From: Leptolyngbyaceae cyanobacterium
GTDB lineage: Bacteria; Cyanobacteriota; Cyanobacteriia; Phormidesmidales; Phormidesmidaceae
Direction of reading: 5' to 3'
Length of the DNA stretch: 58,504 nucleotides
Assembly (NCBI GenBank): GCA_965263355.1
Contig: CBDHHL010000018.1
Location: 1 to 58,504, forward strand
Positions within the stretch are counted from its first letter, which is position 1, and the number at the start of each line of letters is the position of its first letter. The notes beneath the pieces were generated by a model that worked only from the letters and a program-made list of their open reading frames with translations, ran no database searches and had not been told where the DNA came from. This document shows, in pieces, positions 10,531 to 57,410 of this stretch. Both the position numbers and the translations under genes were made by a program.

Positions 10531-10653
10531 TAGAGGGCATTCCCGGGCACAAAAACCCGCCCCCCGCTCTCGGTGGTTCTCAACATGTTCGTTTTTCAGG
10601 AATGGGTAACTAATCTAGATGCACCAAGGAATAAGGAATAACGCTCACCACGG

Positions 10654-11174: not shown

Positions 11175-11584
11175 GCTACTTTCCTCCCCGCACTCTCAGT
11201 TATCCGCTCTCTCACTACAGTGCAAAACCCCTCAATTGTCAGACTTGCGGCGTACTGCAGCTCATAACAATCCCAGGCAAAGCTAGGGCTGATTAACTCC
11301 AGTGGTGTCACAAACACCCATTGCTGTCGGTCAATCCGGTAGGCCAGCACAGGGACCTTTTTGGAATCAAAAGCTTGCTTTACCGCTTGCTCCCACCATC
11401 CCTTTAACTCAGGTTTCTTGGCTCGCTTAATCTCTAGGGCAATACCAGAGATACCCATGCAGTCAGCACCACCATTCCGGGTTTGCTGAAGGTTGCGGCT
11501 TAGATCTATGCCAAGCCGTTCTTGGAGTAGTGAAAGGCATTCCCTTTCACCAGAGGCCCCCTTGTTTCGCTGCATCTTACCCAT
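11171..11584 (-). CDS. PD-(D/E)XK nuclease, Holliday-junction-resolvase-like
   Basis: RNKGASGERE...GGAD....IALEIKR...WWEQA..QA motif. Confidence 0.8.
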   Translation of the reverse strand: MGKMQRNKGASGERECLSLLQERLGIDLSRNLQQTRNGGADCMGISGIALEIKRAKKPELKGWWEQAVKQAFDSKKVPVLAYRIDRQQWVFVTPLELISPSFAWDCYELQYAASLTIEGFCTVVRERITESAGRKVA

Positions 11585-12000
11585 CACTCCACCCCCACAA
11601 CTGTGCTGATCATCTCCAGCCATTCTTTGTTTTCTAGAAACCTGTCCCACGGTGTTGGATACTCAGGCAGATCAGCGGGAGTGCCTAACGTGTCAAACAA
11701 AGGGTTGACCGCTAAAATCCTAAAGGCTTCAAAATCCTTGGGCTCGTCCAGCTTCTCTTGGACCATTCGCCACCAATCTACAGCGGCTTCACGGCAGTCA
11801 ACCCATCCGTAGTAAACGTGTTTTATGTCACAAGAGGGTGACAGCCTTATACGCAAGGCGGCTTTAAGTGCGTATACTACAGACGTATCTTCTTGAGGTG
11901 CTATCATGGGCAATAAATATTGTGTGACTACAGCCCTAGCCGATGTGCAGGGCTGTTTTTGTTTATGCGGCAGTAACACTCTCTGCTTCTGCGGCTTCAA
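11584..12000 (-). CDS. Hypothetical protein (start likely 11907)
   Basis: ORF in the leftward operon. Confidence 0.55.
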   Translation of the reverse strand: MKPQKQRVLLPHKQKQPCTSARAVVTQYLLPMIAPQEDTSVVYALKAALRIRLSPSCDIKHVYYGWVDCREAAVDWWRMVQEKLDEPKDFEAFRILAVNPLFDTLGTPADLPEYPTPWDRFLENKEWLEMISTVVGVE

Positions 12001-13141: not shown

Positions 13142-13178
13142 TTTTGGTCAATCAAAAGATTCTTTTGATTGACCAAAA
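13142..13178. promoter_or_regulatory. Perfect 18-1-18 inverted repeat, putative operator
   Basis: TTTTGGTCAATCAAAAGA-T-TCTTTTGATTGACCAAAA, 30 nt upstream of the PAS gene. Confidence 0.7.
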
Positions 13179-13208: not shown

Positions 13209-13823
13209 ATGCCCCTACTGCAGAAATATATCAATGAACTAATACATTCGGCGGAAATTCCGGCCCACAGTATTGACAAAGAAGGGAAATTGCTAGCCGT
13301 TTCTTACGGGTGGTTAACTCTTTTAGGCTACACAAAAGATCAAGTGATTGGCCGTAAATCTACTGAGTTTCTGACTGAAGAATCCAAAAAGTTAGCCGCT
13401 AAAGTTTTACCTGAATATTACGAAACCGGGAAATGCCACGACATTCCTTATACCTTTGTCGATAGTGACGGACGTGGGGTGTCCGTGCTTTTGTCAGCGG
13501 ATAGCGTCTGGCGTGATGGCGAATTCCTTAGGTCAATCGCTGTGTTGAGACCTACCGATCCTCAAGCAGTGCGAGCCAGGGCCGACAAGATAACCGCATG
13601 GAAGCTTGGCCAGCAAACTGATGTGCAGGTGCTACTTGAAAACCTCGAAGTACTAGAACTCAACTGTGAGGTTACATTGAGATGCAAAAATGAAGCCTGG
13701 TTTACGTATGTCGTTTCGGCAGCTTCGTACTTTCAGGGAGTTGATGCAATTCGCTTGAAACTTGAAGGCTCTCAACGGGAAGTTTTAATAAACCTGGGCT
13801 TAGGGCAACGTCAAACCCCCTAG
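13209..13823 (+). CDS. PAS-domain sensor protein with small C-terminal domain
   Basis: HSIDKEGKLLAVS..WL.LLGY...VIGRKSTEFLTEES...TG....Y.FV..DG...VLLSA, a typical PAS/PAC S-box. Confidence 0.85.
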   Translation: MPLLQKYINELIHSAEIPAHSIDKEGKLLAVSYGWLTLLGYTKDQVIGRKSTEFLTEESKKLAAKVLPEYYETGKCHDIPYTFVDSDGRGVSVLLSADSVWRDGEFLRSIAVLRPTDPQAVRARADKITAWKLGQQTDVQVLLENLEVLELNCEVTLRCKNEAWFTYVVSAASYFQGVDAIRLKLEGSQREVLINLGLGQRQTP

Positions 13824-20982: not shown

Positions 20983-21471
20983 TTACGGCAATTCGATTAT
21001 TGTTGGCTGTCGCAAGATCTCAATAGTTTTAGTTAGCGTCGTATAGGTCAGTGTGTAAATGGCATTATTCTTGCTAGCTCTGTTACCACCGACGTTAAGG
21101 ATCTCAATACCCCATTCGTCAATCCATGCAGCAACATCTTCAGGCGTGGGCTGTTTGGTAAAACGAGCATGTAGCATTGGCTTTTGCATTAATTTGGCGG
21201 TTTTGATCGCCAGCTTACTACCTGGGCTCTCAGTGTTACCAAACAAGACCGTTCCATCGGAATCTCGTATGTTCCGTATAGTCCGGATTGGATACCCAGG
21301 ATCTAAGCACTCCTTAAGCCCATACTTTTCTTCTAGCCATGGCGCTGGGCCATCTTCAGTAAGCCACTGATTAGAGCACCATCCACCAGTTTCAATTCCC
21401 TGGTCATAGGCAGCCGCCAAAGCCGCTTGGTCGGCTCCGGTTTGGCCACCGGATATTATTCGTTTCAACAT
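20983..21471 (-). CDS. SLOG-superfamily protein (cpYpsA / putative molybdenum carrier type)
   Basis: IISGGQTGADQAAL...GGW...RT..N.RDSDGT...GS...LNVGGNR.S. Confidence 0.85.
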   Translation of the reverse strand: MLKRIISGGQTGADQAALAAAYDQGIETGGWCSNQWLTEDGPAPWLEEKYGLKECLDPGYPIRTIRNIRDSDGTVLFGNTESPGSKLAIKTAKLMQKPMLHARFTKQPTPEDVAAWIDEWGIEILNVGGNRASKNNAIYTLTYTTLTKTIEILRQPTIIELP

Positions 21472-29725: not shown

Positions 29726-30472
29726 TTAAGAATCTCCGGTTACAAGATTGAGTCCATCTTTGGACCAGTAAGTTATTCGATCAGCACCATTATCCTTGCC
29801 CACTTGGGCGTATCGCTTGACAACAGCCCGAGCTGATTGCTCCTGTCCTTCGGCATATGTGCAGACAACCTCTGATAGATGGCAGGCTAGATTAAGGCTT
29901 TTAACTGCATGAATAATCTTGGTAAGTTTTGGCGCAGGTAATGGCTGTAATAATTTCGAAGCTCCATAGTCAAACGCCTTAGGGATCTTCTTTGTAATAT
30001 CAGCCCTGCACTGAATACCAATACCGTCCAGCAATCCCTCTTTTTTAAGTCTAGCCGCCAGCTCTAGTACCCCATCCCAATAGTTAGGATTTTGAATAGC
30101 ATATTCATTGAGATAAAGCTGAGCATTTGGGCAAAGAACGCGCATCTTTTCAAATGCTTTTGCTTGCCAGTAGTCTCCCCACTGCTCTGTCCCGTAGTTA
30201 CTGCACTCATTGATCACGTCCCATGAGTCGATAACATCGTGAAACCCTGAGGTGATGCCTGCTAAAAATGATTCAAGATCTCCCTTTGGATGTTTCCGCA
30301 GATTGATCAACGGATGGCCATGCAGTTTATAGCCATCCGTTCTTAGTTCCTGAGCCCTGTCTAAAAAAGATTGAGAGGCTTGCTGATTCATCCTGAAATT
30401 AGGGAGTGTTAGCCAAGTGCAGGCTGGTGGGACAGCTTCAGTATTGAGATTGTACTTATATCCGATTTCCAT
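29726..30472 (-). CDS. Glycoside hydrolase family 10-like protein
   Basis: HGHPL, WDVINE (acid/base Glu), LYLNEY, DGIGIQ, HLSE (nucleophile Glu). Confidence 0.8.
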   Translation of the reverse strand: MEIGYKYNLNTEAVPPACTWLTLPNFRMNQQASQSFLDRAQELRTDGYKLHGHPLINLRKHPKGDLESFLAGITSGFHDVIDSWDVINECSNYGTEQWGDYWQAKAFEKMRVLCPNAQLYLNEYAIQNPNYWDGVLELAARLKKEGLLDGIGIQCRADITKKIPKAFDYGASKLLQPLPAPKLTKIIHAVKSLNLACHLSEVVCTYAEGQEQSARAVVKRYAQVGKDNGADRITYWSKDGLNLVTGDS

Positions 30473-41541: not shown

Positions 41542-42621
41542 ATGAATATAGCACAAGAACCCATCGCGTACTTTGACAGGAAGCGATTGATCACACGCTC
41601 CGGGCTAAAGCCGACCGAGAGGTTTGTCTTGCATACGATAAACGACTACTGCTCAGGTGACGGGACAGGGGCGTTCCCGAAGCAGCAGACCATTGCCAAT
41701 GACACTGGGTACAGTCGCCAGACAGTTAACTGCGCAATCAAAAAGCTTGAAGCCAAAAAGATCATTACTCAGATCCATAACTACCGAGAGCACGTTGGTG
41801 GACGCCGAAACAGCAATTATGTAGTTCATTGGCCAGAACTCGAAACCCTTGAAAATAGCAAATGTCAAAAAACCCGACATCGATATGTCAAAAAAACCGA
41901 CAACATATCTACCCATAGTGATCTACCCATAAAAGAAATAAAGTTCATTCAAAATGAACAGAATAAAGCGATTCAAGATGAATCCGCAGTCAGCAATCAA
42001 GAAATTTCTTTTTCTGATTCTTTTGACCAGGGTGCTGTTAACCCTGAACCCAATGGCCAAGATCCAAAAGTACCCTCAAGGGTTGATACGGTTCCGCGAA
42101 GTTCGAAAAAACCGAACAAACGTGGAGCAAGGCCAAACGATTTGGCTTATGACAAAAATGGATGGTTGCAGTTACCCAGTGGTAGGGCTCACAAACTTCC
42201 TCGATGGCTTGCTTATCGATGGATGCAATTAACCTTGGCTGTTGATTATTTAGACTTTGAAGTCGTTGGCATCGCACCAGACGATCAACCGGTGTTGCAG
42301 ACCAGAGATGGGTTAATGACGGCTAACTATGCATTTGGCGATCGCGATAATTCTGGCCAGTATCCTCTAAAGCAGCTGAGAGACTGTGCAGCGGTCGATA
42401 GGGGACAAAGCCATGTATTGAGCCAGGGGTTATATAACGAGGCCCTTGAGGACTATTTTGAGCAGTGCAGTAAGTGGTGCAAGGATGCAGGGGATCAAGC
42501 GTTGGCCATTATTGAACGGCAAACAGCCCTTAGGATGGTTGGGTTCTGGGAGTCTGAGTACGATGACATGCAGTACTCTTGGTCTGAGTTGGATGGATAC
42601 CTCTGGGAGGAAGCCGCATGA
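41542..42621 (+). CDS. Second HTH replication-initiator-like protein
   Basis: LKPTERFVL..I.DY.......FP.Q.TIA.DTGYSRQTV..AIKKLE HTH_36-type motif; internal direct repeats. Confidence 0.75.
   Translation: MNIAQEPIAYFDRKRLITRSGLKPTERFVLHTINDYCSGDGTGAFPKQQTIANDTGYSRQTVNCAIKKLEAKKIITQIHNYREHVGGRRNSNYVVHWPELETLENSKCQKTRHRYVKKTDNISTHSDLPIKEIKFIQNEQNKAIQDESAVSNQEISFSDSFDQGAVNPEPNGQDPKVPSRVDTVPRSSKKPNKRGARPNDLAYDKNGWLQLPSGRAHKLPRWLAYRWMQLTLAVDYLDFEVVGIAPDDQPVLQTRDGLMTANYAFGDRDNSGQYPLKQLRDCAAVDRGQSHVLSQGLYNEALEDYFEQCSKWCKDAGDQALAIIERQTALRMVGFWESEYDDMQYSWSELDGYLWEEAA
41862..41902. repeat. Two 18-bp iteron-like direct repeats
   Basis: ATGTCAAAAAACCCGACA (41862) and ATGTCAAAAAAACCGACA (41885). Confidence 0.7.
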
Positions 42622-43119: not shown

Positions 43120-44458
43120 AGGTAGTGTCACGGTAGAAATCCCATCTAAATTAACAAGCGTCTTCGCTGGCCCTGCTAGATACCGCTGCGCCTATGGCGG
43201 GCGTGGTAGTGGGAAGTCATATACGTTTGCAAAGATGGCCGCGATTCGTGGCTATGCTAATCCGTTAAGAATCCTATGTACTCGTGAGCTGCAAAACAGT
43301 ATTAAGGATTCAGTTCATGCAGAGATAAAGCGGGCTATATATTCAGAGCCTTGGTTAGAAAAGTTTTACGACGTGGGAGAGACCTACATACGTGGTCGTA
43401 ATGGGACTGAGTTTTTATTCAAAGGATTGAGGTTGAATTACCAAGAGATTAAGTCAACCGCTGGTGTAGGCATTTGCTGGATAGAAGAAGCGTCAGCGGT
43501 GTCTGATGAAAGCTGGGAGACGCTGATACCTACCATCCGAGAGCCTAACTCTGAAATATGGGTGACATGGAACCCATACGAAGAAATGGATCCGGTTCAT
43601 CAACGGTTTATCGAAAAACAGCCTAGTGCATTGAAAATAGCTGAAGTTAATTGGAGGGATAACCCTTGGTTCCCTGCAGTACTAGAGCAGGAAAGACAAG
43701 ACTGTAAACGCGACTGGCCAGAGGAGATATATGAACACATTTGGGAAGGTAAGGTTAAACGTGAGTCTGACCCATGGCAAGTGATTCCAACGGCATGGGT
43801 AGAAGCAGCAATGAAACGCTGGCAACCTCCCACGGCACCACAAACAGCCCTAGGTGTTGATGTGGCCAGAGGTGGCAAGGATGAGACTATACTGGCACCC
43901 CTCCATGGATGGCACTATGGTGAGCTGATCACGTACCCAGGTAAATCAACCCCAGATGGGGCAAGTGTGGCGGCACAGGTCCAACAGCATTTAACCCCTG
44001 GCAGTGCTGCATATATTGATGTCGTTGGTGTAGGTAGCTCTGTTTATGATCATTGCACTGGGCTAGAGGCTTACCCTGTCAGTGCTGGCACCAAGGCAGA
44101 AGACCCAAGAGGCCAGCGGTATACCGATAAATCAGGTCAGCTTGAGTTTAAAAATCTTCGCTCTTGGATGACATGGAGGTTTAGAGAGTTGTTAGACCCT
44201 GACGGTGGAGTGGATATTGCATTACCGCCGGATAGTCGATTGAAAGCAGATCTTTGTGCGCCTCGATGGAAGATGGAGCCGCCATTGGCAGGTAGTAAAG
44301 CTCAGGGCCGGATCGTTGTAGAGAGCAAGGATAAGGTGAAGGAGAGGATCGGGAGATCACCGGATAGGGGTGATGCTGTGCAGTATGCAGCGATTGGGAG
44401 AGACCATTTTGCACCCGATACTACGCTAATTGACAAACTTTCTGCTATGTACGGTTAA
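43106..44458 (+). CDS. terL: Terminase large subunit (PBSX family)
   Basis: YGGRGSGKS Walker A, WIEEA Walker B, PTIR, WNP; nuclease LGVDVARGGKD and SPDRGDA. Confidence 0.95.
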   Translation: MGKRKGSVTVEIPSKLTSVFAGPARYRCAYGGRGSGKSYTFAKMAAIRGYANPLRILCTRELQNSIKDSVHAEIKRAIYSEPWLEKFYDVGETYIRGRNGTEFLFKGLRLNYQEIKSTAGVGICWIEEASAVSDESWETLIPTIREPNSEIWVTWNPYEEMDPVHQRFIEKQPSALKIAEVNWRDNPWFPAVLEQERQDCKRDWPEEIYEHIWEGKVKRESDPWQVIPTAWVEAAMKRWQPPTAPQTALGVDVARGGKDETILAPLHGWHYGELITYPGKSTPDGASVAAQVQQHLTPGSAAYIDVVGVGSSVYDHCTGLEAYPVSAGTKAEDPRGQRYTDKSGQLEFKNLRSWMTWRFRELLDPDGGVDIALPPDSRLKADLCAPRWKMEPPLAGSKAQGRIVVESKDKVKERIGRSPDRGDAVQYAAIGRDHFAPDTTLIDKLSAMYG

Positions 44459-44486
44459 CATAGGGCTATTCCTGAAATGCTTCACC

Positions 44487-47345
44487 ATGGCCGATCCTGA
44501 AATCATCCACTTAGACGGGGTATTGTCTGCCCTGAACAAATCCATGATGGTCAATCGACAGACCGGCATGGGTACAACGCGAGATTCTTTTACTGAGACC
44601 GAAGTTGGTTATGTCCCACTGTTGGGTGAACAAGAGCTGAGATCTTTGCATCGTGGCAATTGGTGGATTAGAAGGATTGTAGATACTCCACCTCAAGACA
44701 TGGTGAAAGGTGGTGTAACGCTTAAGCATCCCAGCAATGACGCTGAAGCAGTAGCCAAGGTATTGGGACTGTATGAGGCTGGTGGTGAACAATCGCCCTA
44801 TAGCCGCAAGATGGGCGGCGCTCAGGCATTCCAGAAAGCAGAGACCTATGCCCGCTGGTTTGGCCGTGGCTATGTTGTGCTACGGGTTAATGGGGATGAG
44901 AGGCTAGATAAGCCCATTAAAAAAGTACGGTCGTTTGAGGGCTTTTCTGTCCTAGATCGCTACCAACTCAGACCAGACAATGGGTCTCTTAATTATGAAG
45001 ATCCTGAGTACTACCAAATTATTCGCAAATACCAGCGTAATGGCAGCGGGTTAGGGGGAGCAGATTTTGGGCAGAAGATTCATGAGACCAGAGTATTACC
45101 GTTTGATGGTGCATTCATCCATCCTTACGACATTAATTTAGAAGCCTCGGACGGTGGGCACGACTCCGTTATTCAGGCATTGTATGAGTGTTTCTGTCGG
45201 CATTATTCAGTACAGAACGCGATCGCTAAGGGCCTCGATAGTTACTCACTGTTTAAGGTGGCTATTGCTAATCTTGGTGAGCTGATGATGCAGGATGAAG
45301 GTGAGGCTGCACTGGCTAAAACACTAAATGCCATCGCTGAACAAGTCAGCCTGCATCGGATATTAGTCCAGGACTCTGACGCTGCTAACAGTGAATTCCA
45401 AGAGCGCTCATTCACTGGGGTCAAAGAAAATGCTGATAGCTTCAAGGATGAATTAACCGCTGCATCCTGGCCCTTGCCTCATTACAAAATCTGGGGCAGT
45501 GTCGATAAAGCTGGATTGGCCGACAGTGGGGGCGCTGAATCCAGGGCCTATGCTGACGATATCAATACACTTCAGAAATCGAAGTTTTACGATAATCACC
45601 GTAGAGTATTCAATGCCCTGTTTGAGGCTACAACTGGCACGATTCCTGAGGGTTACGGGCTGGAGTATCCCAGCATCTTTAAGAGCACTCCCAAGGAAGA
45701 AGCTGAAATTAAAAAGACCGAGGCAGACACCTATTCTGTTTTGATCACGGCTGAGGTATTGAGCCCCCTTGAGGCAAAACTAGCCTATGCCACCGGGGAG
45801 GATATCAGTAACGTTCTGGATGCTGAAGCGATTGAGGCAGAGTTAGAGCGGGCTAAAAAGACTGAAGTTGAGCAGGTTGGACCAAGAACCGACAATAAAT
45901 ACAGCCACATCAACTTTAAGCCCCCTGAGCCTGTCCAGAACGCATTTAAGCGGGCGTTGAGCGCTACTGAATCGGGCAAGTTAAAGATTGGCTCAGGCAT
46001 GGAGGCAGCAACCAAAGCGTGGGCTAAAAAGCTAGCGAATGGGGAATCCGTTAGCCCTGAAAAGGCTAGACAGGGCTACCGATGGTTTAAACGCAATGCT
46101 CGCTTTGAGGGCTCCCCTAAGGATTCGCCAGCATGGGCTAGTTGGGCTTACTGGGGATACTCTGAGGGTCGTAGCTGGTTTAACCGGCTATGGCGTCAAA
46201 TGGAAGCCGTAGAAAAGACAGATGATTCTACACCAACAAAACGCATTCTTAAATGGAATGACTTTGAGATAGGGCTTCAATATCTACCTTTTGAAAGGCG
46301 TCATGGTCGTATTTTACCTGCTGGCTATGGTCACTTTAGGAAGACTAAAGGCGCTGATGGAATGGCTGTAGACGTTTATGTTGGCACCCAGCTATCTAGC
46401 CCTAAGGTGTTTGTGGTTGATCAACTCATCAATGGTGAATTTGATGAGGAGAAAATGATCATTGGAGTAGGGACCATAAAGGAAGCTGAAACCATTTATA
46501 CCTCAGCGATGCCCAGTGAAATGATGGGCGGCATCCGTGAAATCAGCTTAGAAGACTTGGCGGGATATCGGACTAACACTGAAACCAAGGCAGACGCGGA
46601 ACCATTCACCCCTAGCTCTGGCGATGGCGACTTTCAAAACCTATCGCGGCTACTCTCTAGTTTCGACTGGGCCACGATCCGCAGTATTGCAGAGGAGCAG
46701 GGCTGGCAGTGGGACGATGATTTAGCCCGATACCTGAATATTGAGGGAAACGTTGTCACCCATCAGCAGATCTTAGATGTCACGCAAGCTGAACTCGCTA
46801 GACTCGAAATTGAAGTAGAAGAAGCTACAGCGCTGCTAGTTGAAGGCGATGCCACCGTGCCCGAGTGGGAGGAGTTGATCGCAGAAATTACGATAGGTGC
46901 TGCGTTGCTGTTCCTGCTGTTTGGCCTTGGGAATAAACAGCCCGATGAAATCACTGAGAGCATGGCCAGAACACACCTTGAAAGGCAGTTTGGCTTTTTG
47001 CAAAACTTTGCTAAGTCAGTGCTGGCTGGTGGAATGACCGCTAACGGTATTGCAGCCAGAGCAAAGCTGTACCTGCATGATGCGCAGTTGCTGTATGGGT
47101 TAGCTCAGGAATTTATACACCCTATTGATGTATACCCGTTCTACAGCAACGCGCTGGGGCCTTGCCAAAGCTGCCCGGAATGCCCGCAAATAACAGCTAA
47201 AGGGATTGTCCCTAGAGGTACCTTAAAGCCCATTGGCCAGCGTCAGTGTTTCGTTAATTGCTGCTGTCAGTGGTCTTTCCATAAAACCCAGGATGAGCGG
47301 ATTGATGGGCCAACGGTGCTGACGCTTAAGAACGGATGGCTTTAA
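44487..47345 (+). CDS. Portal protein (DUF1073 type) fused to an unknown domain, an InPase-like domain and a MuF-like head morphogenesis domain
   Basis: TGMGT.RD, W..RRIVD.P..DM portal motifs; YGHFRKTKGADG.AVDVYVG...VDQ...FDEEK; C-terminal C.SCPEC...PIG...C..NC.C. Confidence 0.85.
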   Translation: MADPEIIHLDGVLSALNKSMMVNRQTGMGTTRDSFTETEVGYVPLLGEQELRSLHRGNWWIRRIVDTPPQDMVKGGVTLKHPSNDAEAVAKVLGLYEAGGEQSPYSRKMGGAQAFQKAETYARWFGRGYVVLRVNGDERLDKPIKKVRSFEGFSVLDRYQLRPDNGSLNYEDPEYYQIIRKYQRNGSGLGGADFGQKIHETRVLPFDGAFIHPYDINLEASDGGHDSVIQALYECFCRHYSVQNAIAKGLDSYSLFKVAIANLGELMMQDEGEAALAKTLNAIAEQVSLHRILVQDSDAANSEFQERSFTGVKENADSFKDELTAASWPLPHYKIWGSVDKAGLADSGGAESRAYADDINTLQKSKFYDNHRRVFNALFEATTGTIPEGYGLEYPSIFKSTPKEEAEIKKTEADTYSVLITAEVLSPLEAKLAYATGEDISNVLDAEAIEAELERAKKTEVEQVGPRTDNKYSHINFKPPEPVQNAFKRALSATESGKLKIGSGMEAATKAWAKKLANGESVSPEKARQGYRWFKRNARFEGSPKDSPAWASWAYWGYSEGRSWFNRLWRQMEAVEKTDDSTPTKRILKWNDFEIGLQYLPFERRHGRILPAGYGHFRKTKGADGMAVDVYVGTQLSSPKVFVVDQLINGEFDEEKMIIGVGTIKEAETIYTSAMPSEMMGGIREISLEDLAGYRTNTETKADAEPFTPSSGDGDFQNLSRLLSSFDWATIRSIAEEQGWQWDDDLARYLNIEGNVVTHQQILDVTQAELARLEIEVEEATALLVEGDATVPEWEELIAEITIGAALLFLLFGLGNKQPDEITESMARTHLERQFGFLQNFAKSVLAGGMTANGIAARAKLYLHDAQLLYGLAQEFIHPIDVYPFYSNALGPCQSCPECPQITAKGIVPRGTLKPIGQRQCFVNCCCQWSFHKTQDERIDGPTVLTLKNGWL

Positions 47346-48271: not shown

Positions 48272-49384
48272 GTGCCTGTACGCTTTGATCTCGCACCTAT
48301 CGTAAATAGCGAACAACTAGAAGATGGTCGCCTTCGAGTGAGAGCAACATTTTCTAAAGTTGGCCCATTGGTATATGTCGATGGTGATGGTAATGCTCGC
48401 ACAGAAATTGTAGAAGCGGCTGAGCTATTCCGCGCTGACAGCTTAGAAACTGCTGGCCTAGCACCCGTTACGCTTGGCCATCCAAAGGTGGGAATGGTCA
48501 CACCTGAGAACTACAAAGAATTTGCCGTTGGTGCTAGTGGCTCAACTGTTTTGGCAGATAAACAGAGGGGCTTAGTTGAGGTTGTCTTTTTGGTGGGTGA
48601 TGCCGAAGCCATCGAAGCGGTAAAGCGCGGTGATGCTTCAGAGGTTAGTGCTGGATACTACGCCAATATCGAGGACCGCAACGGGCAGTTATATCAAACA
48701 AACCGCCGCTATAACCATCTTGCTTTAGTACAAAAGGGCCGCGCTGGGCCTCAAGTAAGGGTCCACATGGACTCAGATGACTGGGCTATTCAAACTGATC
48801 AATGTTCTAAAAAGAGGGCTATGAAAAAGTACAAAGGGTTTGAAATCGAGGACGGTCTGTACGAGATTGTCACCGACATGGAAAAGCAGATCAAAGACAT
48901 GAAGTCTAAAAAAGATTCTGCTGACACTACCGCAACTACAGCCATTACCGAGCTACAGGCTAAAAACGATATGCTCACTGCTCGTGTAGATGAGCTAAAA
49001 GCAGAGCGTGACAATCGCCTAGATGCCAAGCAAGTAGACGCACTGGCCACTGCTCGACTAGATGCATTCACCAAGGCTGAGCCTTACTTAAAGGATGCCA
49101 AGTTTGACGCATCTATCGAGGCTATCGAGTGGAAGCGCCAAGCAGTAACAGCGGCACGACCATCACTCAAGTTGGATGGCAAGGATGACGCTTACGTAAA
49201 TGCCGCCTTTGACATGTTGGCAGAGCTAGGTGTTTCTAACCCTGGCCAAGAGAACAAGGGCGCCCTAGACGCAGCAGCAGCTGGTGGTGCTCATGATGGT
49301 GCGGCTGGGTCAAGAGAAGACGAATATGACGCTCGTGCTGATGAAGCCGACATCAACAAACTATTTGAGGGGGCTAGTAACTAA
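48272..49384 (+). CDS. Prohead protease/scaffold (DUF2213)
   Basis: DG.LRV.A....G...Y; PVTLGHP; EVSAGY; YNHLALV..GRAG; DGKDDAYV.AAFD. Confidence 0.9.
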   Translation: MPVRFDLAPIVNSEQLEDGRLRVRATFSKVGPLVYVDGDGNARTEIVEAAELFRADSLETAGLAPVTLGHPKVGMVTPENYKEFAVGASGSTVLADKQRGLVEVVFLVGDAEAIEAVKRGDASEVSAGYYANIEDRNGQLYQTNRRYNHLALVQKGRAGPQVRVHMDSDDWAIQTDQCSKKRAMKKYKGFEIEDGLYEIVTDMEKQIKDMKSKKDSADTTATTAITELQAKNDMLTARVDELKAERDNRLDAKQVDALATARLDAFTKAEPYLKDAKFDASIEAIEWKRQAVTAARPSLKLDGKDDAYVNAAFDMLAELGVSNPGQENKGALDAAAAGGAHDGAAGSREDEYDARADEADINKLFEGASN

Positions 49385-49887
49385 TGGCTATCACTGACTA
49401 CAACGATCTAACGGGCCAGGGCTATATTGCTGGCTCTCTTTATTCCAGCATCGTGGGAGCTACGCCCATTACTTATGTAAATGCTGGCACGGTTGTTTTG
49501 CCCGCTGGTTTTGGCGCGGTTATTTCCGCTGCTGGTGAAGCGACTTTACCGTCTGGTGCTGGCACGTTTGCCGGTGTGGTCGTAATCCCTGAGACCATCG
49601 AGAAACGTACTGGCTACTCCCTGGATGCAAGTGGCTACTTTGGTTATCCAGTAGATTATGAGGCTGCACTAGCTACCCAGGATATGTATGCAGTCTACGT
49701 AGATGACACCGTAGCGGCTGGTGATCCGGTTTACCTCAATCACACCGCTAGCACATCTGTTGTAGGAACATTCCGCAACGATGCCAATAGTTCAAATGCT
49801 CAACTTATCTCAGGCGCACGATTTGAAACGGCTGCAACTGGCACCGATTCTACGCCTGCCATTGCAATCGTAAACTTTAGCGCTTAA
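49384..49887 (+). CDS. Head decoration/cement protein
   Basis: Between DUF2213 and capsid; V.AGDPVY...G.FRN motif. Confidence 0.8.
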   Translation: MAITDYNDLTGQGYIAGSLYSSIVGATPITYVNAGTVVLPAGFGAVISAAGEATLPSGAGTFAGVVVIPETIEKRTGYSLDASGYFGYPVDYEAALATQDMYAVYVDDTVAAGDPVYLNHTASTSVVGTFRNDANSSNAQLISGARFETAATGTDSTPAIAIVNFSA

Positions 49888-49905
49888 GCATAGGAGTTCC
49901 TGAAA

Positions 49906-50877
49906 ATGCCCGGAAGTATTTTATATAGAAGCCTGCAACAGAAAAAGAATCGAGTCCTACGCAAAAAGCGCCGTGGCTTAGATTTTGTTGGATCTACTTG
50001 GATCCCTACCGTGATGGACATTCGCCCTGGTGCTCGTACCATCATCCAAGAGCAGGTAGAAGGCTATGGCGAAGCGATTCTACAGTCACCTGACGCTTCA
50101 GATTTTCGCTTAGTTAATATTGATGCTGGCGAATCTGAATACCGCATCTTTATGGCTGCTGCTGGCTATCCGGTAACCTTTGGTGAGATGAACGCTCAAC
50201 AGTTCGCCCAAGGTAATGGCCAGCAATACGTTGCCTCTGATGAGAAGATGCGCGTCACCCAACGGGCGATCTTTGAGCAGGTCAATGAGCTTACCGCTTT
50301 TGGTAGCACAGCACATGGCGTTACTGGTGCGCTCAACAACGCATCTGTAACGCTGACTGATTCCACTTTTGACCCATTCAATGCTTCGAATTCTTCTGAA
50401 GCGATCGCAGAGTGGTTCTTAGGTGAAGCTGGAGCGATGTTGACAGCATCGAACAACGTTGAATATCCCAGTACAGCAAAAATCAGTACTGACCTGTTTG
50501 TGCTGTTCACGTCCAAGAAAATGACAGACACAGGTGAGACCGTTCTGTCCTACATCCTCCGTACTCAAAGGGAAGCCGCAACTGCTGGCCGCCCTACCAT
50601 TTCAAGCATTGAACTAGCTTACGAATGCCAGTCTGCAGTTCTTGAAGCCAATGGCGCTCAATCAGGTGGCACTAACAAGGATCGGATCTGGTTTTATAGC
50701 CAGGATGAAGAAAACCTAGTCAAGCACATGCTCTCGGGTGCTATCCAACTGTTCCCAGAAGATTGGATTGGCCAGGCCCCAGGCAAAAAGATTTACCCCA
50801 TGTATTGCCTGTGTAGCGAGCTAATCGTCAATTACCCTGGCGCAATGCGTTACTTGGACCACCCTAAAAAGAGCTGA
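49906..50877 (+). CDS. Major capsid protein (DUF2184/encapsulin-like HK97 fold)
   Basis: Position and size; FG....GVTG.LN and IVNYP.AM.Y motifs; AGGAG RBS. Confidence 0.88.
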   Translation: MPGSILYRSLQQKKNRVLRKKRRGLDFVGSTWIPTVMDIRPGARTIIQEQVEGYGEAILQSPDASDFRLVNIDAGESEYRIFMAAAGYPVTFGEMNAQQFAQGNGQQYVASDEKMRVTQRAIFEQVNELTAFGSTAHGVTGALNNASVTLTDSTFDPFNASNSSEAIAEWFLGEAGAMLTASNNVEYPSTAKISTDLFVLFTSKKMTDTGETVLSYILRTQREAATAGRPTISSIELAYECQSAVLEANGAQSGGTNKDRIWFYSQDEENLVKHMLSGAIQLFPEDWIGQAPGKKIYPMYCLCSELIVNYPGAMRYLDHPKKS

Positions 50878-50883
50878 TAACCC

Positions 50884-51276
50884 ATGACTAAAATCGTAGT
50901 TTTTCGGCCCGAGAACTGCTCACCCCCCAGGGCAGCAAAGGCAACGCTAAACCTGGATGCTTACCCCTGGAGAATCGTTTTCTCTCCAGGGAATAACAGC
51001 GTATCTGATGAGAATATAGCCAAGCTTCAAGCGCATTTGGATTTTGAGCGGTATCAAAGTCTAGGGGCTTTGACCATCAAGGACGCTGTTGACCCCGTAG
51101 CCTCTGACTCAACAACAGCCCCTGAAAACCTGAGCCACCTAAACACCGACGAAGCAGAGGATCTGATTGACGCGACCAGCAATGTTGATTTGTTGCAAAA
51201 GTGGCTTAAGGCTGAGACCCGCAAGACTACCCGTGCTGACTTAGACCGCCGGATTGCAGCGCTAACGGAGGCATAA
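50884..51276 (+). CDS. Conserved post-capsid hypothetical protein
   Basis: PG.N...; EA..LI......LL..W...E.RK..R..L..RI pattern. Confidence 0.7.
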   Translation: MTKIVVFRPENCSPPRAAKATLNLDAYPWRIVFSPGNNSVSDENIAKLQAHLDFERYQSLGALTIKDAVDPVASDSTTAPENLSHLNTDEAEDLIDATSNVDLLQKWLKAETRKTTRADLDRRIAALTEA

Positions 51277-51665
51277 TGGCTGAATTTCTTGATATTGGCA
51301 CCACATTAGCCGATCCAACGCAAACCACTAAAGGCCGATTCGAGGTAAATGGCGCTGAAGCCGTCTCCATTGGCGTTTATAACAATCTATCTACGTCCGT
51401 CACCCTAAACGCTTTTAGGGTCGTCTTCTTCCCCAATGGCAATGCTGAAGCGGTGGACGGACCAGACACCGCCGCAGAGTTCACCTCACCGGCAGGTGGG
51501 GGGAATGTGGTCCAGCATGGCAATCCCGTGGACCCGACAACATTAGTTGCAGGGGAGAAAATGTACTTTGTCTTAACTAATGTGCGGGCTTTCCACAGCC
51601 TACAAGTGTTGGCCTCGGTCGCGTCAGGCACGGGTAAGTTGAAGATTGAGTTTGGGAGGGGTTAG
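51276..51665 (+). CDS. Virion-associated beta-rich protein
   Basis: Coupled ORF with GGAGG RBS. Confidence 0.6.
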   Translation: MAEFLDIGTTLADPTQTTKGRFEVNGAEAVSIGVYNNLSTSVTLNAFRVVFFPNGNAEAVDGPDTAAEFTSPAGGGNVVQHGNPVDPTTLVAGEKMYFVLTNVRAFHSLQVLASVASGTGKLKIEFGRG

Positions 51666-51667
51666 GG

Positions 51668-54046
51668 ATGGTTGTTGTTGGTAAGCCGTTGGAGGGTGGA
51701 AGCGGTGACATTCGCTTACTGAGTACCACATTGCAGGATGTGTCTGGGACGCAGACTCTATTCCTTACTTACGAAGAAGCCCTAGACCCTAGCAGTGTTC
51801 CCGCGACTGGCGATTTCTCACTGTCTGGAAGTCGAACAATCACAGGTGTTTCTATCTCTGGCGATTCTGTCGTCATTGATTTCAACCCAGCTTATGGAGA
51901 AAGTGACACTCCTGAAGTGACGTACACAGAAGGGGCTAACCCTATCCAGCGCTTAAGAGCTGTAGAGGCTAGCGAGTTTATTGGTCGTCGGGCAATTATT
52001 ACGGCAGCTAGCGTAGCATCAGCGCTGCAAACCCTCACTACGCAAACCAGCCAAACACCGACCGCTACAGACTTTACATTAAATGGGACCGAAAACTCTT
52101 TTCGGTTATTTTATGAGCCGACAAGCTTCAGAACTAGTGATCCTTGGTTGGATGTATGGGTAAAAATTGGTACTGAAGCGGTTAAACAGATTCGGTTATA
52201 TTATTGGCAATCTCGGTATATTGTTGCTCCAACTGGGGCTCAAATTGGTATTGGTACTACTTCAGGGGTACAAGTCCAATACCATCGAGCAACATTAAAT
52301 CTAGATGTTGTTCCTACACTTCCGGGGAGTACAGTTACAGGTACAGCAAACTGTGATAAGAACTGCCCACCATATTGGAACCCGTCAGCTGCACATATTA
52401 CGTTTGCTCCCACAGTTACAGTAGAGAATAGGGTGTTCTCTGTACCTGCTAGTGCAACTCAAAACCCTTTCTTTGTGTCTGAGTATGACGGATCAACTTG
52501 GACTGCCCCTAGAGCTTACAAACAAGATCCCAATAAAACTACTTTAATTCAATGTGCTTATTCCCAGATTGCACTTTGTACTATAGACGGTTCAACCTTA
52601 GATGCAACCGCTATTACAGGAACCACTATTGGTGGAAGTAGTGATGTAATTACTATCACATTGCCTACACCATCAAATACTTATAATGTTTCGAATGTCG
52701 CAGACCTAGAAACACGATTATTAGCTGCAACCTCGGGAGATCGTATTGTTTTAGCCGATGGGACTTACAGTCTCACTCAGGCTATTGATGAGCGATACGC
52801 AGGAGTACAAATAGTTAGTCAATCGAATAACCCTGACGCTTGTATTATCACTGGAAACACGATGGCTTTTAGAGGTACTTTGCCCGCTCCTGCAAACACT
52901 ACCCCAAACTATATACGAGGCATCCAATTTACTGTGGATGACGGCATTTTGCTGGAAGGTGCCACGTTTCGGGTAGATAACTGTAAATTTGAAAATACTG
53001 TTTCTGGGGACTGCTTCAATTACAGCGAGCCAGAAGAAGGCAACACTTTACTAGTGGTAAACTCTGACGCCTCTAATGCTCATTCAGATTGTTGGAATTT
53101 CGATGGGGGATCTGGTTCTCCACTAGATAGAACAGTACAACTAGTATGCTGTACAGGTTCAAATGCAGGAAATGCGGATAATGCCCAAATCGTAACCACT
53201 CATACAGGACTACCGATTGAGTTACACGGGTGCGTATTTAGCGATGCCCAACTAAACGTAGCGGCAAACGACAGTAGTGATGGGGCAACTACTTATGCAT
53301 ATTTCTCCTCTCTAACTAATGGTACTAGACAAGGAGGAGTAACTAATACGTTTCTATTTGCGTGTCATTGTGAACATGGAACAGTACAAACGAGTACTCA
53401 AGAAGACAGTTATCTTACTTACAGAAGTTCAGATATTTCAGGGACTACTGGTACTGCTTTTGCTCGGAACTTCACAGGTAAAATTGTAGCTAATTACTTA
53501 TCTTTGCCTTCTGGTGCAGGGCGTCTCTTTTTCAACAACAGCGTAGGAGGAGGAGAAGTACGTGATTCTATTTTTGATAATGGAAGTGAAGGTATTCTTC
53601 TTGACTTTATAAGTGGGGGTCCTTTTGTGACTCCATTAGAAGCTATAAATAATACCTTTATTAATAACACTGAAGCTATTCAACAGAATGCGGGATTGCC
53701 TTTGAATTTAGTTAATACAGCCGCAAAAGATAACGGATCTTCTATTGTTACAAGTGCAGGTGGATTTGCAGAGATTACAGGTTCTAGCAATACTTTAGAC
53801 GCTAATGTAGATGCTGATTACACAGGACTTACAGGGGATACTCTAAACGTAGATGCGGCGTTAGACTCAGCCCTACGACCTACGGCAGCAGGTAACTGTG
53901 ATGAGAATGGTACTGTCCCTAGTACTCAAATCTTGGGATTATCTGACCCGTTTGGACTAATCCTTGTGCAAGATAAGGATACTATTCCCCGAGGGGCAAG
54001 AGCTAGGCTGGTAAATACGGCTGATTTGTACCCGGATGCAGTTTAG
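51668..54046 (+). CDS. Fibre/spike protein: SwmB/Ig-like N-terminus plus right-handed beta-helix (pectin lyase-like)
   Basis: LTYEEALD..SVPATGDF; A.SGD.IVLADGTY beta-helix cap; Asn/Thr-rich repeats (NNTFINN). Confidence 0.7.
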   Translation: MVVVGKPLEGGSGDIRLLSTTLQDVSGTQTLFLTYEEALDPSSVPATGDFSLSGSRTITGVSISGDSVVIDFNPAYGESDTPEVTYTEGANPIQRLRAVEASEFIGRRAIITAASVASALQTLTTQTSQTPTATDFTLNGTENSFRLFYEPTSFRTSDPWLDVWVKIGTEAVKQIRLYYWQSRYIVAPTGAQIGIGTTSGVQVQYHRATLNLDVVPTLPGSTVTGTANCDKNCPPYWNPSAAHITFAPTVTVENRVFSVPASATQNPFFVSEYDGSTWTAPRAYKQDPNKTTLIQCAYSQIALCTIDGSTLDATAITGTTIGGSSDVITITLPTPSNTYNVSNVADLETRLLAATSGDRIVLADGTYSLTQAIDERYAGVQIVSQSNNPDACIITGNTMAFRGTLPAPANTTPNYIRGIQFTVDDGILLEGATFRVDNCKFENTVSGDCFNYSEPEEGNTLLVVNSDASNAHSDCWNFDGGSGSPLDRTVQLVCCTGSNAGNADNAQIVTTHTGLPIELHGCVFSDAQLNVAANDSSDGATTYAYFSSLTNGTRQGGVTNTFLFACHCEHGTVQTSTQEDSYLTYRSSDISGTTGTAFARNFTGKIVANYLSLPSGAGRLFFNNSVGGGEVRDSIFDNGSEGILLDFISGGPFVTPLEAINNTFINNTEAIQQNAGLPLNLVNTAAKDNGSSIVTSAGGFAEITGSSNTLDANVDADYTGLTGDTLNVDAALDSALRPTAAGNCDENGTVPSTQILGLSDPFGLILVQDKDTIPRGARARLVNTADLYPDAV

Positions 54047-54053
54047 TTTATAG

Positions 54054-54806
54054 ATGCAACCCATCCCTAACCTTATTTCAGCGCTCGATTATAGCGGTAT
54101 TACGCTATTAGGCTGCTGGGTAGCGTGGCAGGTACGGAGGTTTGTAAGCCATGGTCTGTTATGGGGCCTACTTATAGGCTGTGGCTTGTTTTTGATGAGC
54201 TGTGCAGAACATCATCTAACCCATGCCATAGGCTCTAGTTGGGCAGCAAGGGCAACATGGTTTTGCGCGATCGCTTCAACTGCTGGATTCATGGTGCTTT
54301 GGTGCTTTACACCGCGATTAATCCAAGCAATCACCAAAGTTGCACATCAAGCGACCACTGACGCTCTCACGGGACTGCATAACCGTGGTAGTGGCAACCG
54401 TATACTAGGGTGTCTCCAAGAAACGGCGACAACACCAACAGGGGTTCTATTTATTGACATTGACCACTTCAAGGCCATAAACACTAAGCTTGGTCACGCT
54501 GGTGGGGATAAGGTTCTGCAGTCAACAGCAACTACAATCAGAAACCAAGTACGCAAAGGTGATTCAGTGATCCGATGGGGCGGTGAAGAGTTCTTGATTG
54601 CTCTCCCAGGGTGCTCAATAAAAGAAGCTGCTAAAATCGCTCAAAACATCTTGCTATCAGTGAGGGTTGGTAATCAATGCACAGCATCTATCGGTGTGGC
54701 TAGCCTACTCCCTGGCAACCAATGGGAGGATGCTGTAAACCTCGCTAACAATCGAATGAGAATCGCAAAAGAACGAGGGCGTGATTGCGTTGTTACAAAT
54801 GCATAG
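54054..54806 (+). CDS. Diguanylate cyclase with N-terminal 3-TM ethylene-receptor-like sensor domain
   Basis: DALTGLHNR, FIDIDHFKAIN, GHAGGD, RKGD I-site, RWGGEEF; TM2 has SCAEHH (CxxxH). Confidence 0.9.
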   Translation: MQPIPNLISALDYSGITLLGCWVAWQVRRFVSHGLLWGLLIGCGLFLMSCAEHHLTHAIGSSWAARATWFCAIASTAGFMVLWCFTPRLIQAITKVAHQATTDALTGLHNRGSGNRILGCLQETATTPTGVLFIDIDHFKAINTKLGHAGGDKVLQSTATTIRNQVRKGDSVIRWGGEEFLIALPGCSIKEAAKIAQNILLSVRVGNQCTASIGVASLLPGNQWEDAVNLANNRMRIAKERGRDCVVTNA

Positions 54807-55899
54807 AGTTATGCAATTTTTCGAAAATGAAAATACTCTAAACGGCTACTGTGTCGTGAATGCCGATGGTCGTTTTGTCCGAGTAAATAGCCGTTGTTGT
54901 GAAGTGCTTGGCTACTCAGAAGAACAGCTACTAAATCTTAACTTTCAGGCAATAACGCATCCCCAGGATTTGAACCCTGATGTGAATAGCTATCTGCGAG
55001 TGATGGATCCCGACGATTCACTTACCCATTACACAATGGAGAAAAGATATATCCATGGTCGGACTAATCAAGATATTTGGGCGGTGCTAAACGTCCAGGG
55101 CTACTACGATGAACATGGCCAGTTTGAGTTTTTCCTGTCTGAGATTGCTATAGCAAGCGATCGCAGGCTATCAGCTGAAGACCGTAGGCGATTGCAAGAA
55201 ATAAAACTAGGGCTTGATAACAAAGAATTTATTTTTCACTATCAGCCCATAGTAGAGCTATCCACCGGAAGCACTGTTGGCTATGAGGCGCTTTCCCGAT
55301 GGCAGCACAAAGGGGAAACTCTAAGCCCACTAGAATTTATCCCCCTACTGCAGGTCTCTCACTCCATACATCTGCTCTGCCATAGCGTGATCCAGCTAGC
55401 AGCGACCGTTACCGAGTCCATGGGCGATAAATGGCTAAGCGTCAATGTTTCGCCGCTGACCATCGCTAGAGATGATTGGGGCAAATATGCTGATCTATTC
55501 CCACGTTCTGCCCACATGGAGATCCTAGAAAGCGATGTGATCGGGCAGGTTGTCATTGAGAAACTACGAAGCCTGAGAGATAGAGGCGTAGTTCTGGCCT
55601 TGGATGATTTTGGCAGTGGGTATAGCAATTTTAAGAGGCTTTCGATCTATGGGATTGAAGCGATCAAAATAGACGCCAGCATAGTACAAGGATTGCCCGA
55701 TAAAGAATCTACAGCTATGTGTGGAGCGATTATTGCCATGGCTCAAGTGTTAGAGCTGAAGGTGATAGCCGAAGGCATTGAGACTCAGGAGCAAGCAGAG
55801 AAGCTTTTATCTATGGGTTGCGACATGGGCCAGGGTTATTACTTTGGGAAGCCTGCACCAATAGAAGAGATTAATCGCTGTCCGTTGCCCGTCGCTTAG
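54781..55899 (+). CDS. PAS/PAC-EAL c-di-GMP phosphodiesterase (start probably 54811)
   Basis: PAS (LGYSEE.L...ITHPQD...EKRY); YQPIV, YEALSRW, SVNVS, EILE, LDDFGSGYS, IKID, AEGIET, QGYYFGKP. Confidence 0.93.
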   Translation: MIALLQMHRVMQFFENENTLNGYCVVNADGRFVRVNSRCCEVLGYSEEQLLNLNFQAITHPQDLNPDVNSYLRVMDPDDSLTHYTMEKRYIHGRTNQDIWAVLNVQGYYDEHGQFEFFLSEIAIASDRRLSAEDRRRLQEIKLGLDNKEFIFHYQPIVELSTGSTVGYEALSRWQHKGETLSPLEFIPLLQVSHSIHLLCHSVIQLAATVTESMGDKWLSVNVSPLTIARDDWGKYADLFPRSAHMEILESDVIGQVVIEKLRSLRDRGVVLALDDFGSGYSNFKRLSIYGIEAIKIDASIVQGLPDKESTAMCGAIIAMAQVLELKVIAEGIETQEQAEKLLSMGCDMGQGYYFGKPAPIEEINRCPLPVA

Positions 55900-56446
55900 G
55901 GTGGTCCATTGGCATCCCCACCAAGTCTTTAATGTCTTTCTGGTCATGCTTGCTGAGTCGAGCGTCAAGGCTGTTTCGTTTGTCGTCCAACTTATTGATA
56001 AAACCTTTCAACCACGGGACTGGTCCAGTCGCCCACACGATCAGCTCAATCACATTGTTCAGCCTCTCGATGGTTCGCTGCATGTATCGAGCGTCAGCCT
56101 GAACACTTAACGCCAATTTCTCTGACTCAATACGCTTATGCTCTGCAAGCTTAAGCTGCCCTGATATGTTCTCACAATACTTCTCTAGGCCCTCTATCCT
56201 CAGCAGCGCATCAGCCAATTGCTGTCTAAGTTCTTGGTTAACTTGCCGGTCGTGATTAATGTCAGCTTTTAACTCTTCAAACTCTTTCCTCGTAGGTGTT
56301 CGAACTTTTACCAACTCGTTTGCGTAAGCCTTGATAACGGCAAACTGCAACCCATTGAACGCCTGCTTCCATGTTTTGCGCCAATCAAAGCCACCCGTTG
56401 AAGGCATCCCGACTGAATCCATTGTCTTTTGCTGCTGTTCAGCCAT
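55871..56446 (-). CDS. Coiled-coil protein with C-terminal KRRATD motif
   Basis: Heptad-rich ORF convergent on the EAL gene. Confidence 0.65.
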   Translation of the reverse strand: MAEQQQKTMDSVGMPSTGGFDWRKTWKQAFNGLQFAVIKAYANELVKVRTPTRKEFEELKADINHDRQVNQELRQQLADALLRIEGLEKYCENISGQLKLAEHKRIESEKLALSVQADARYMQRTIERLNNVIELIVWATGPVPWLKGFINKLDDKRNSLDARLSKHDQKDIKDLVGMPMDHPKRRATDSD

Positions 56447-56501: not shown

Positions 56502-57410
56502 ATGAAAATGAGTCAGATTAAAGGCACCCCAGAAGACCATCTTTTGCTAACAGAACGTGGCACTGGCAAAGTCCGAGAAATCCCCCTAGAAAAACTAAGG
56601 AAAGGTTTTGTCACTTTAGGCCGGAGAGAAGCGACTGAAACCCACTATCAGTTAGCCGCTGGTAGCCCCGTGCAACCTTGGGTCAGTGGCTGTCACGCTA
56701 CACTTTACGCAAAGCCACGAAAAGGTGACTCTACCCAGTGGGATTACTATCTTAGGGATGGGTGCAGAGGAACATCTGAATGGAAAAACTCGGCTCATGG
56801 TGTTTGGGCTGGAGGAGAACGCTTCGCCCCTGACTATGAATTTCAACTACGTCCTGGCTTCGGGGGGTATATTACGCTGTTCCCTAAAATCCACGACTTT
56901 TCCTATGAGGCGATTTTAGAGTGGCCAGTACGAGAAACCCCAGCACCAGACAGCTCTCAGCCAACGCTGCAACAATACCAACGGCTTGTAGTAGAGAAAG
57001 ACAATGCGCTGATGCAGAAAAGAGCAGCATTAGAACAGGCTGAGCTGAATAGGCAAAAGCTGCAAAGTATGGGCTCTCAGTTAATCTCTATCCAACAGGA
57101 CTACGATCAGAAGATTGACAAACAATCTACCCGACTGTTTGAGCTGAGCGGAAAACTTGAAGAAGAGCGAACTCAGTCCCAGCAGACAAAAATAGAGATT
57201 GCAAAAGAGCGGGCTATCAACCGTGCCCAAGATAAGAAGATATCTTGGATCATTAAATTCAGCATCGCTGCGGCGATCGCTCTCTTTACAAACACTCAAG
57301 TAGATGAGGAAAAAGTTAGCGCCATCCTTGATGTAATCGCAATCCTTGGCGTAGGCGGCAGTGTTGGTAGCGCGATCATTAAATCAGAAGGCAGTCATGA
57401 GCCTGGCTGA
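56502..57410 (+). CDS. FHA-domain protein with coiled coil and two C-terminal TM helices
   Basis: TLGR, VSGCHATL, LRDG...SAHGVW FHA motifs. Confidence 0.8.
   Translation: MKMSQIKGTPEDHLLLTERGTGKVREIPLEKLRKGFVTLGRREATETHYQLAAGSPVQPWVSGCHATLYAKPRKGDSTQWDYYLRDGCRGTSEWKNSAHGVWAGGERFAPDYEFQLRPGFGGYITLFPKIHDFSYEAILEWPVRETPAPDSSQPTLQQYQRLVVEKDNALMQKRAALEQAELNRQKLQSMGSQLISIQQDYDQKIDKQSTRLFELSGKLEEERTQSQQTKIEIAKERAINRAQDKKISWIIKFSIAAAIALFTNTQVDEEKVSAILDVIAILGVGGSVGSAIIKSEGSHEPG

Follow-up and report, generated by a model that had tools for sequence, protein, structure and literature searches.

Few c-di-GMP elements are described on phages in a 2023 review, whose accessible part names the short GGDEF-only protein of YuA and the riboswitch of phiCD119 (PMC10333796). 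Bordetella phage LK3 has a GGDEF gene and its lysogens form more biofilm, but in the available portion of that report the gene is not shown to be the cause (PMC8471281). For sargassum viromes, the accessible text of one paper notes viral mucR and yhjH annotations (PMC11295528). Our literature search, which covered openly accessible papers, found no phage-borne cyclase/phosphodiesterase pair, cyanophage EAL study or phage ETR1-like protein. As far as the available text describes them, the Yuavirus-related phages (YuA, LK3) share with the present locus a phage-borne diguanylate cyclase gene; the difference is that YuA is GGDEF-only, with no phosphodiesterase partner mentioned in that text, whereas here a cyanophage carries a predicted membrane sensor-cyclase together with a PAS-EAL protein.

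In this text, the window refers to the whole 58,504-nt stretch of DNA that was analyzed. Its first 15 bases are identical to its last 15, and the contig is therefore circular. Pfam and PHROG profiles identify integrase-like, terminase, portal, protease, cement, capsid, tape measure and endolysin genes, and the window is a circular, integrase-bearing, temperate cyanophage genome. The features of the region around the pair are as follows:

48272 to 51276, plus strand: head operon (maturation protease, cement, major capsid protein and a 130-aa gene, g130), co-oriented and tightly packed with the pair
51276 to 51665, plus strand: 129-aa gene (g129), whose orthologue likewise precedes a variable gene in the G001 prophage
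51668 to 54046, plus strand: 792-aa variable gene (g792), GC3 0.30, no HIP1 site; relatives have other sequence here, up to the GGDEF start codon
54054 to 54806, plus strand: predicted membrane diguanylate cyclase, 250 aa; three-helix ETR1-like sensor (aa 1 to ~85), linker helix, and GGDEF domain with RKGD I-site and GGEEF
54799 to 55899, plus strand: predicted PAS-EAL phosphodiesterase, 366 aa from ATG 54799, with all catalytic motifs; start overlaps the GGDEF stop
55871 to 56446, minus strand: 191-aa convergent gene (g191), overlapping the EAL 3' end
56502 to 57410, plus strand: g302, with an FHA-like domain, a coiled coil and a C-terminal membrane anchor; its orthologue in G034 is above the Pfam FHA cut-off

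The genes from capsid to EAL (capsid, g130, g129, g792, GGDEF, EAL) are separated by 6, -1, 2, 7 and -8 nt. The longest PAS-EAL reading frame opens at GTG 54781, but ATG 54799 is the more likely start: it is used in four of the seven EAL cluster members, and the resulting MHR start is also found in P0024, P0025 and L131. The overlap with the GGDEF stop is then 8 nt. The earlier note had placed the pair directly after capsid and fibre genes; capsid genes do lie upstream, but the fibre label is unproven because the adjacent 792-aa gene matches no Pfam or PHROG family. Downstream, a similar-sized opposite-strand gene occupies the g191 position in both the G001 and G045 prophages, although no homology was detected between g191 and the 171-aa gene of G001. 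A direct profile comparison of g302 with two FHA domains is marginal (P=0.02), and the FHA-like assignment does not depend on it.

The same note had described adjacent, co-oriented GGDEF and PAS-EAL genes with intact motifs, and every motif that it named is present, with correct I-site spacing. The cyclase matches PF00990 over residues 100-244 (E=3.9e-33; 114.9 bits against a cut-off of 23.8), and the second protein contains a PAS domain (19-118) and a PF00563 domain (141-358; E=4.5e-55; 187 bits against a cut-off of 31.3). Each enzyme was also said to have its own sensor, and this agrees with the ETR1-like domain on the cyclase and the PAS domain on the EAL protein. The cyclase motifs are DALTGL at 103, DIDHFK at 135, N143, D152, RKGD at 167-170 and GGEEF at 176-180, so that D135, K140, N143, D152 and GG(D/E)EF are all present; we take the first four to be metal- and guanine-binding residues. 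The I-site lies five residues ahead of GGEEF, and its R167 and D170 are invariant in a five-sequence family alignment; the G001 orthologue has GLGDEF instead of GGEEF. The predicted GGDEF fold matches those of the WspR and PleD cyclases in Foldseek (E about 1e-14). Numbered from ATG 54799, the EAL motifs are EALSRW 163, VNVS 215, EILE 241, DDFGSG 269, IKID 289, AEGIE 324 and GQGY 344. Ten residues that we presume to be the functional EAL-domain positions (E163, R167, N216, E241, E244, D269, D270, K290, E325 and Q345) are all invariant among 14 aligned EAL proteins. By these motifs, both enzymes look intact, although the window's EAL clade is missing a segment between VNVS and EILE that P0034 has. 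The window has no Rfam match, so that no known c-di-GMP riboswitch was found in it, and a complex prediction for the two proteins gave a score of 0.00, which is no answer either way.

That the pair belongs to a phage genome with a cyanobacterial host, as the earlier note held, is borne out by composition and context. The HIP1 word, a cyanobacterial sequence mark, occurs 30 times in the window against ~1 expected, with one site in each gene of the pair. GC3 and the codon index of both genes fall inside the range of the 18 other window genes measured, and phage genes flank the pair on both sides. The possibility that host DNA had been misassembled into the contig did not hold up. Two contigs span the upstream junction with 0 differences (X1, 51602-54128; X2, 53077-54253; possibly from the source sample). 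A 2412-nt contig of a different study, labelled microbial mat (X4), spans 54053-56186 with 235 differences and no gaps (89% identity); a misassembly is therefore rejected.

The X4 copy and the protein clusters also bear on how the pair varies. The cyclase cluster has six members and the EAL cluster seven, on contigs that include two of 56,848 and 58,603 nt, and the motifs are unaltered in all of them wherever covered. Synonymous changes account for 22 of the 26 SNPs listed inside the pair. Relative to X4 there are 36 amino-acid changes and about 203 nucleotide changes, which gives a rough dN/dS of 0.05-0.09 if P0005 and P0010 derive from the 2412-nt contig and differences are evenly spread. 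From these substitution patterns we conclude that the pair is under purifying selection. Going upstream, the variant contigs of all four runs part from the window at 54053/54054, and the GGDEF start codon is where several alternative upstream sequences stop. There is thus no fixed promoter directly upstream of the GGDEF gene, and whereas g792 is exchangeable, the pair is stable.

Other parts of the window contain features of separate interest. The portal gene (44430-47345, plus strand) has an inserted inorganic-pyrophosphatase-like domain (PF18823, aa 627-711); contigs from X3 and X4 lack 46213-46593 and have 7 other letters in its place, so that this domain is lost with the reading frame kept. 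In the early region, 13209-13823 (plus strand) encodes a stand-alone PAS protein (PF13426, E=2.3e-9), the third sensor gene of the window. A perfect 18-nt inverted repeat (13142-13178) lies just 5' of it, and it is also just preceded by a 227-aa gene common to the window and the G001 prophage. A circularly permuted YpsA SLOG-family gene (20983-21471, minus strand; PF12694, E=1.1e-39) is a possible nucleotide-signalling component. Two HTH_36 replication-initiator-like genes are present (9358-10530, minus strand; 41542-42621, plus strand), the first containing short direct and inverted repeats at 10067-10243 with an iteron-like look. At the end of the tail cluster, a glycosyl hydrolase family 10-like gene (29726-30472, minus strand; E=6.4e-15) might encode a sheath degrader.

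We consider the three-helix N-terminus of the cyclase to be a divergent domain of the ETR1 (ethylene-receptor-like) type, a probable distant relative with a putative ligand-binding role. Its hydropathy peaks are at residues 7-25 (weak, 1.31), 30-48 and 64-85, and three helices are seen in both structure models, although the second model is not independent because its alignment included ETR1 rows. The sensor alone has no Pfam match and no significant PDB sequence match. A fold search gave no match at E<=0.001 in PDB or BFVD, and the Atlas gave only leads under 0.9; no solved ETR1 membrane domain turned up in the PDB searches. Among 1.84 billion representatives, residues 1-103 match just three other clusters (38-42% identity), all GGDEF fusions. 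Common to the clusters are N6, A10, Y13, S-C-A-x-H-H-x-x-H, C71 and S75, and the invariant residues of the family are N6, Y13, C50, H53, H54, H57 and C71.

The relationship to ETR1 domains emerges from profiles and from a few residues. The window protein has no match to PF25487 (ETR1_N; gathering score 27 bits), and of seven proteins scanned two match weakly (P0142, 15.9 bits, E 0.016; P0143, 15.6 bits, E 0.02) and the other five not at all. Over 172 genomes, the phage-family sensor profile has six matches at E<=0.01, of which one is the copy in the G001 prophage, two are chromosomal proteins and three are weak matches in short or broken frames. The two chromosomal proteins independently exceed the PF25487 cut-off (37.7 and 35.4 bits against 27). 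A profile comparison with nine canonical ETR1 domains is marginal: its score is 21.0 (P=0.004), and the best of 60 shuffles scores 19.7. Adding two intermediates to the canonical set gives E=1.4e-6, but these intermediates were themselves found by the phage profile. Of 12 domains, L032 is left out of these comparisons. No match at E<=0.001 was found among 91 IMG/VR locus entries with the ETR1-like profile. In a joint alignment of 15 phage and cyanobacterial domains, Y13, C50 and H54 are the sole invariant columns, so the phage sensor retains the Tyr of helix 1 and the Cys-x3-His of helix 2 of the ETR1 type. N6, invariant in the phage family, falls in the Asp25 (Asp/Asn) column, and the helix 3 Lys/Arg found in all nine canonical rows has no conserved basic counterpart in the four phage-family rows. 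Because the profile matches are weak, the invariant residues few and the helix 3 Lys/Arg missing, we use the label ETR1-like and stop short of counting the domain as an ETR1 member.

In ETR1, according to the part of the published study available, the copper ligands are Asp25, Cys65 and His69, Asn being tolerated with lower affinity, and Asp25 pairs with Lys91; Asn in the Asp25 column is a natural variant in 3.67% of sequences, mostly cyanobacterial (PMC10266040). Ethylene alters phototaxis and biofilm in Synechocystis via an ETR1-type receptor, again from a partially available source (PMC6682694). The nearest chromosomal kin of the phage sensor are the ETR1_N-GGDEF-EAL proteins of genomes G007 and G009, which are above the Pfam cut-off. 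The 642-aa G007 protein (L035, 13094-15022) lies between housekeeping genes and consists of an Asn-type ETR1_N domain, a further segment, GGDEF and EAL; G009 (L018) encodes a close homologue.

A synteny survey, which the earlier note had proposed, recovers the cassette in G001 (L009), a distant Leptolyngbyaceae prophage, where the order capsid gene, variable gene, ETR1-like-GGDEF, PAS-EAL and FHA-membrane is as in the window. The full, tightly packed order in G001 is protease, cement, capsid, small genes, g129 orthologue, 555-aa gene, sensor-cyclase, PAS-like EAL gene, Rha-type gene, opposite-strand gene, g302 orthologue, and then host DNA. The 555-aa gene at the variable-gene place differs from g792 and has a DUF1565 match. 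The G001 EAL protein is 25% identical to that of the window and lies outside the window's clade on a long branch, so the EAL partner may have been acquired twice, judging from a quick tree with long branches. A JGI metagenome scan gave one locus (L022), which is not counted as independent because its ORF map is the same as that of L009.

Elsewhere the pair is rare, as the earlier note supposed: among 11 PF09950 capsid loci in the 172 genomes (one family), only that of G001 has it, four of the other ten being on short contigs. Window-type PAS-EAL genes (E<=1e-60) occur in three of these genomes, all in phage-like surroundings: after lysis genes in G044, directly after a variable gene in G045 and at a Mu-like end in G108. 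No cyclase was found within the DNA around each. The FHA-membrane alignment has matches in five of the 172 genomes.

A search of phage databases for GGDEF and EAL genes, likewise suggested in the earlier note, gave a mixed outcome. EAL genes recur in cyanophages and prophages with no separate cyclase (L010, L012, L013, L014, L015, L050, L131 and L134), which makes the phosphodiesterase the apparent core and the sensor-cyclase an apparent add-on. In IMG/VR, the EAL gene has terminase, tail or capsid genes nearby in five HIP1-bearing loci (L010, L012, L014, L048 and L120) and in L013, which has no HIP1. L015 mirrors L012 around the EAL gene, L050 has HIP1 and a PAS-EAL gene whose neighbors show no confirmed phage hallmark, and the EAL frame is split in L116 and L119. 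No relative emerged from IMG/VR when the EAL protein, the capsid protein, the sensor alignment or the FHA alignment served as the query. On the other side, separate neighboring EAL and GGDEF genes in L052, L053, L100 and L066 (among 91 IMG/VR entries, some of them duplicates) have little or no HIP1 and are either further pairs or host flanks; possible host flanks also apply to L041 and L064, where a GGDEF gene lies beside a hybrid gene. Other phage pairs may therefore exist. GenBank phage records gave 93 GGDEF and 70 EAL matches, the best 60 of each being listed, and two of the three records inspected have host-like neighbors. The GGDEF genes of MaAM05 and 683R6 (L006, L008) sit among housekeeping-type genes, and database counts of phage GGDEFs are thus likely inflated. 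Separately, the L010 contig, which also carries tape-measure and tail genes, has three consecutive genes at 9000-11591, for an FHA-membrane protein, a PAS-EAL protein and a sigma-70-type factor; the factor is presumably SigF-like, by eye.

The pair is real, viral and conserved. Superinfection exclusion, dispersal and lysis timing, all suggested in the earlier note, are candidate outcomes. As to its role, we lean, with slightly less than even confidence, toward a pair that sits at the end of the head operon, is co-expressed with it late in infection and resets host c-di-GMP, and so gliding, pili and sheath. Transcription would read through from the head genes into the pair. The PAS-EAL protein, the part that stands alone in most relatives, would lower c-di-GMP, loosening the mat matrix or mobilizing the infected filament so that progeny spread. 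The membrane cyclase, braked by its I-site, would make this control two-way, and it may be gated by a putative metal site (C50/H54 and H53/H57) in the ETR1-type domain, for which ethylene, another small ligand, or the metal/redox state itself are candidate cues. This explanation is supported by the G001 prophage, whose genes are in the same order and likewise closely packed, and by the G045 arrangement of a variable gene followed directly by PAS-EAL without a cyclase. Counting against late co-expression, the G001 and G045 cassettes are at a prophage end, adjoining host genes, which is a frequent moron position. Late expression is also not general, because several phage EAL genes lie outside the head operon: divergent from terminase genes (L012, L014, L015), at a Mu-like prophage end (L134), or after lysis genes (L131).

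Lysogen expression is a close rival, which we rate as possible but on the unlikely side. As a lysogenic-conversion moron, the pair would be expressed from the resident prophage and tune the c-di-GMP of the lysogen, affecting biofilm, gliding and pilus or polysaccharide receptors, with superinfection exclusion as a possible gain. The phage is temperate (integrase), the cassette borders host DNA in two prophages, and environmental sensors would seem to fit a long-lived state best. LK3 offers a parallel in its GGDEF-bearing lysogens with more biofilm, the gene not being shown as causal in the accessible text (PMC8471281). However, the 7-nt gap upstream is too short for a promoter to fit between the genes, and the exchange of upstream DNA reaches exactly to the start codon; each variable gene could nevertheless contain a promoter. 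A sigma-70 scan gave 3 weak sites where chance would give 14.9, and such a scan is uninformative for cyanobacteria. The gene arrangement is more suggestive of a unit co-expressed with the head operon than of an independent lysogen moron.

It is improbable that the pair acts instead to keep c-di-GMP within bounds, so that the infected cell stays alive and normal-sized until lysis, independent of shut-off host enzymes. Anabaena has a c-di-GMP cell-size threshold and a lower lethal threshold, in the available part of that work (PMC13075795), and an I-site-braked cyclase with a phosphodiesterase would make a natural homeostat; but the threshold work comes from a different cyanobacterium, and most related phages have EAL only, so that the level would be lowered, not protected. 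A shade less probable again is a local or counter-defence role, in which the enzymes would work through a partner, such as the FHA-membrane protein or a target in the host, or would clear a cyclic-dinucleotide immune signal, instead of altering the global pool. An FHA or FHA-like membrane gene is found within two genes of EAL in the window, L009, L010, L012, L014, L015 and L132, and one report describes, in its accessible text, phage peptides that act on a cyclase of the host (PMC8085984). Against this, FHA occurs without EAL (L133) and EAL without detected FHA (L013, L048, L050, L134), and a cyclase is hard to reconcile with signal removal. Finally, neutral cargo or an artefact (host genes recently captured or misassembled, with no phage function) is highly improbable and largely refuted: although phage-database GGDEF matches can be host flanks, as in the two GenBank records, here the junction is bridged, phage genes lie on both sides, codon use and GC are phage-like, selection is purifying, no close chromosomal copy was found, and the only close sensor match among 172 and 401 (overlapping) cyanobacterial genomes belongs to a prophage.

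A more ambitious reading is doubtful to us but worth stating: temperate mat cyanophages would have a small-molecule receptor of their own, in which a copper-dependent membrane sensor derived from an ethylene receptor is joined to a cyclase and balanced by a PAS phosphodiesterase, and through which the virus reads a gas or redox cue of the mat and switches the host between moving and sticking. It would then be the fullest form of a wider, undescribed cyanophage EAL habit, often beside an FHA membrane protein. The complete module of two enzymes and two sensors, demonstrably viral and conserved, brings into view a group of EAL-bearing cyanophages and prophages, and with it one can test if phages direct gliding and mat formation in filamentous cyanobacteria. 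The 250-aa minimal sensor-cyclase, whose output is easily read by a c-di-GMP reporter, is a handle on what Asn-type, Lys-less ethylene-receptor domains sense.

Among known systems, the Clostridium perfringens conjugative plasmid resembles the window in having an opposing cyclase/phosphodiesterase pair on one mobile element, and the Vibrio ICEs in having cyclases on one; they differ in that neither is a phage and no capsid operon or ETR1-like sensor is mentioned for them in the accessible part of the review (PMC10333796). The YfiN-interacting peptides (YIP) of PB1-like Pseudomonas phages also interfere with host c-di-GMP, with motility and superinfection effects discussed (PMC8085984); in the text available these are small peptides on a host cyclase, whereas the window encodes enzymes with sensors. 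The record of Citrobacter phage Chris1, a temperate phage, has an EAL-containing gene between tail genes and integrase, and so a c-di-GMP enzyme as in the window, but this is a single gene with no separate cyclase among the 17 features shown, and the host is enterobacterial. Like the ETR1-type domain (PF25487; Arabidopsis ETR1, Synechocystis SynEtr1), the phage sensor has three membrane helices, the Tyr and Cys-x3-His; unlike it, the sensor is below the Pfam cut-off, has no helix 3 Lys/Arg and has the extra conserved residues H53, H57 and C71, and in contrast to ETR1 and SynEtr1 it is fused directly to GGDEF and is phage-borne. Single phage GGDEFs and a plasmid-borne pair were already known; new here are the ETR1-like sensor of a phage cyclase and, as far as our literature search reached, an opposing pair on a phage.
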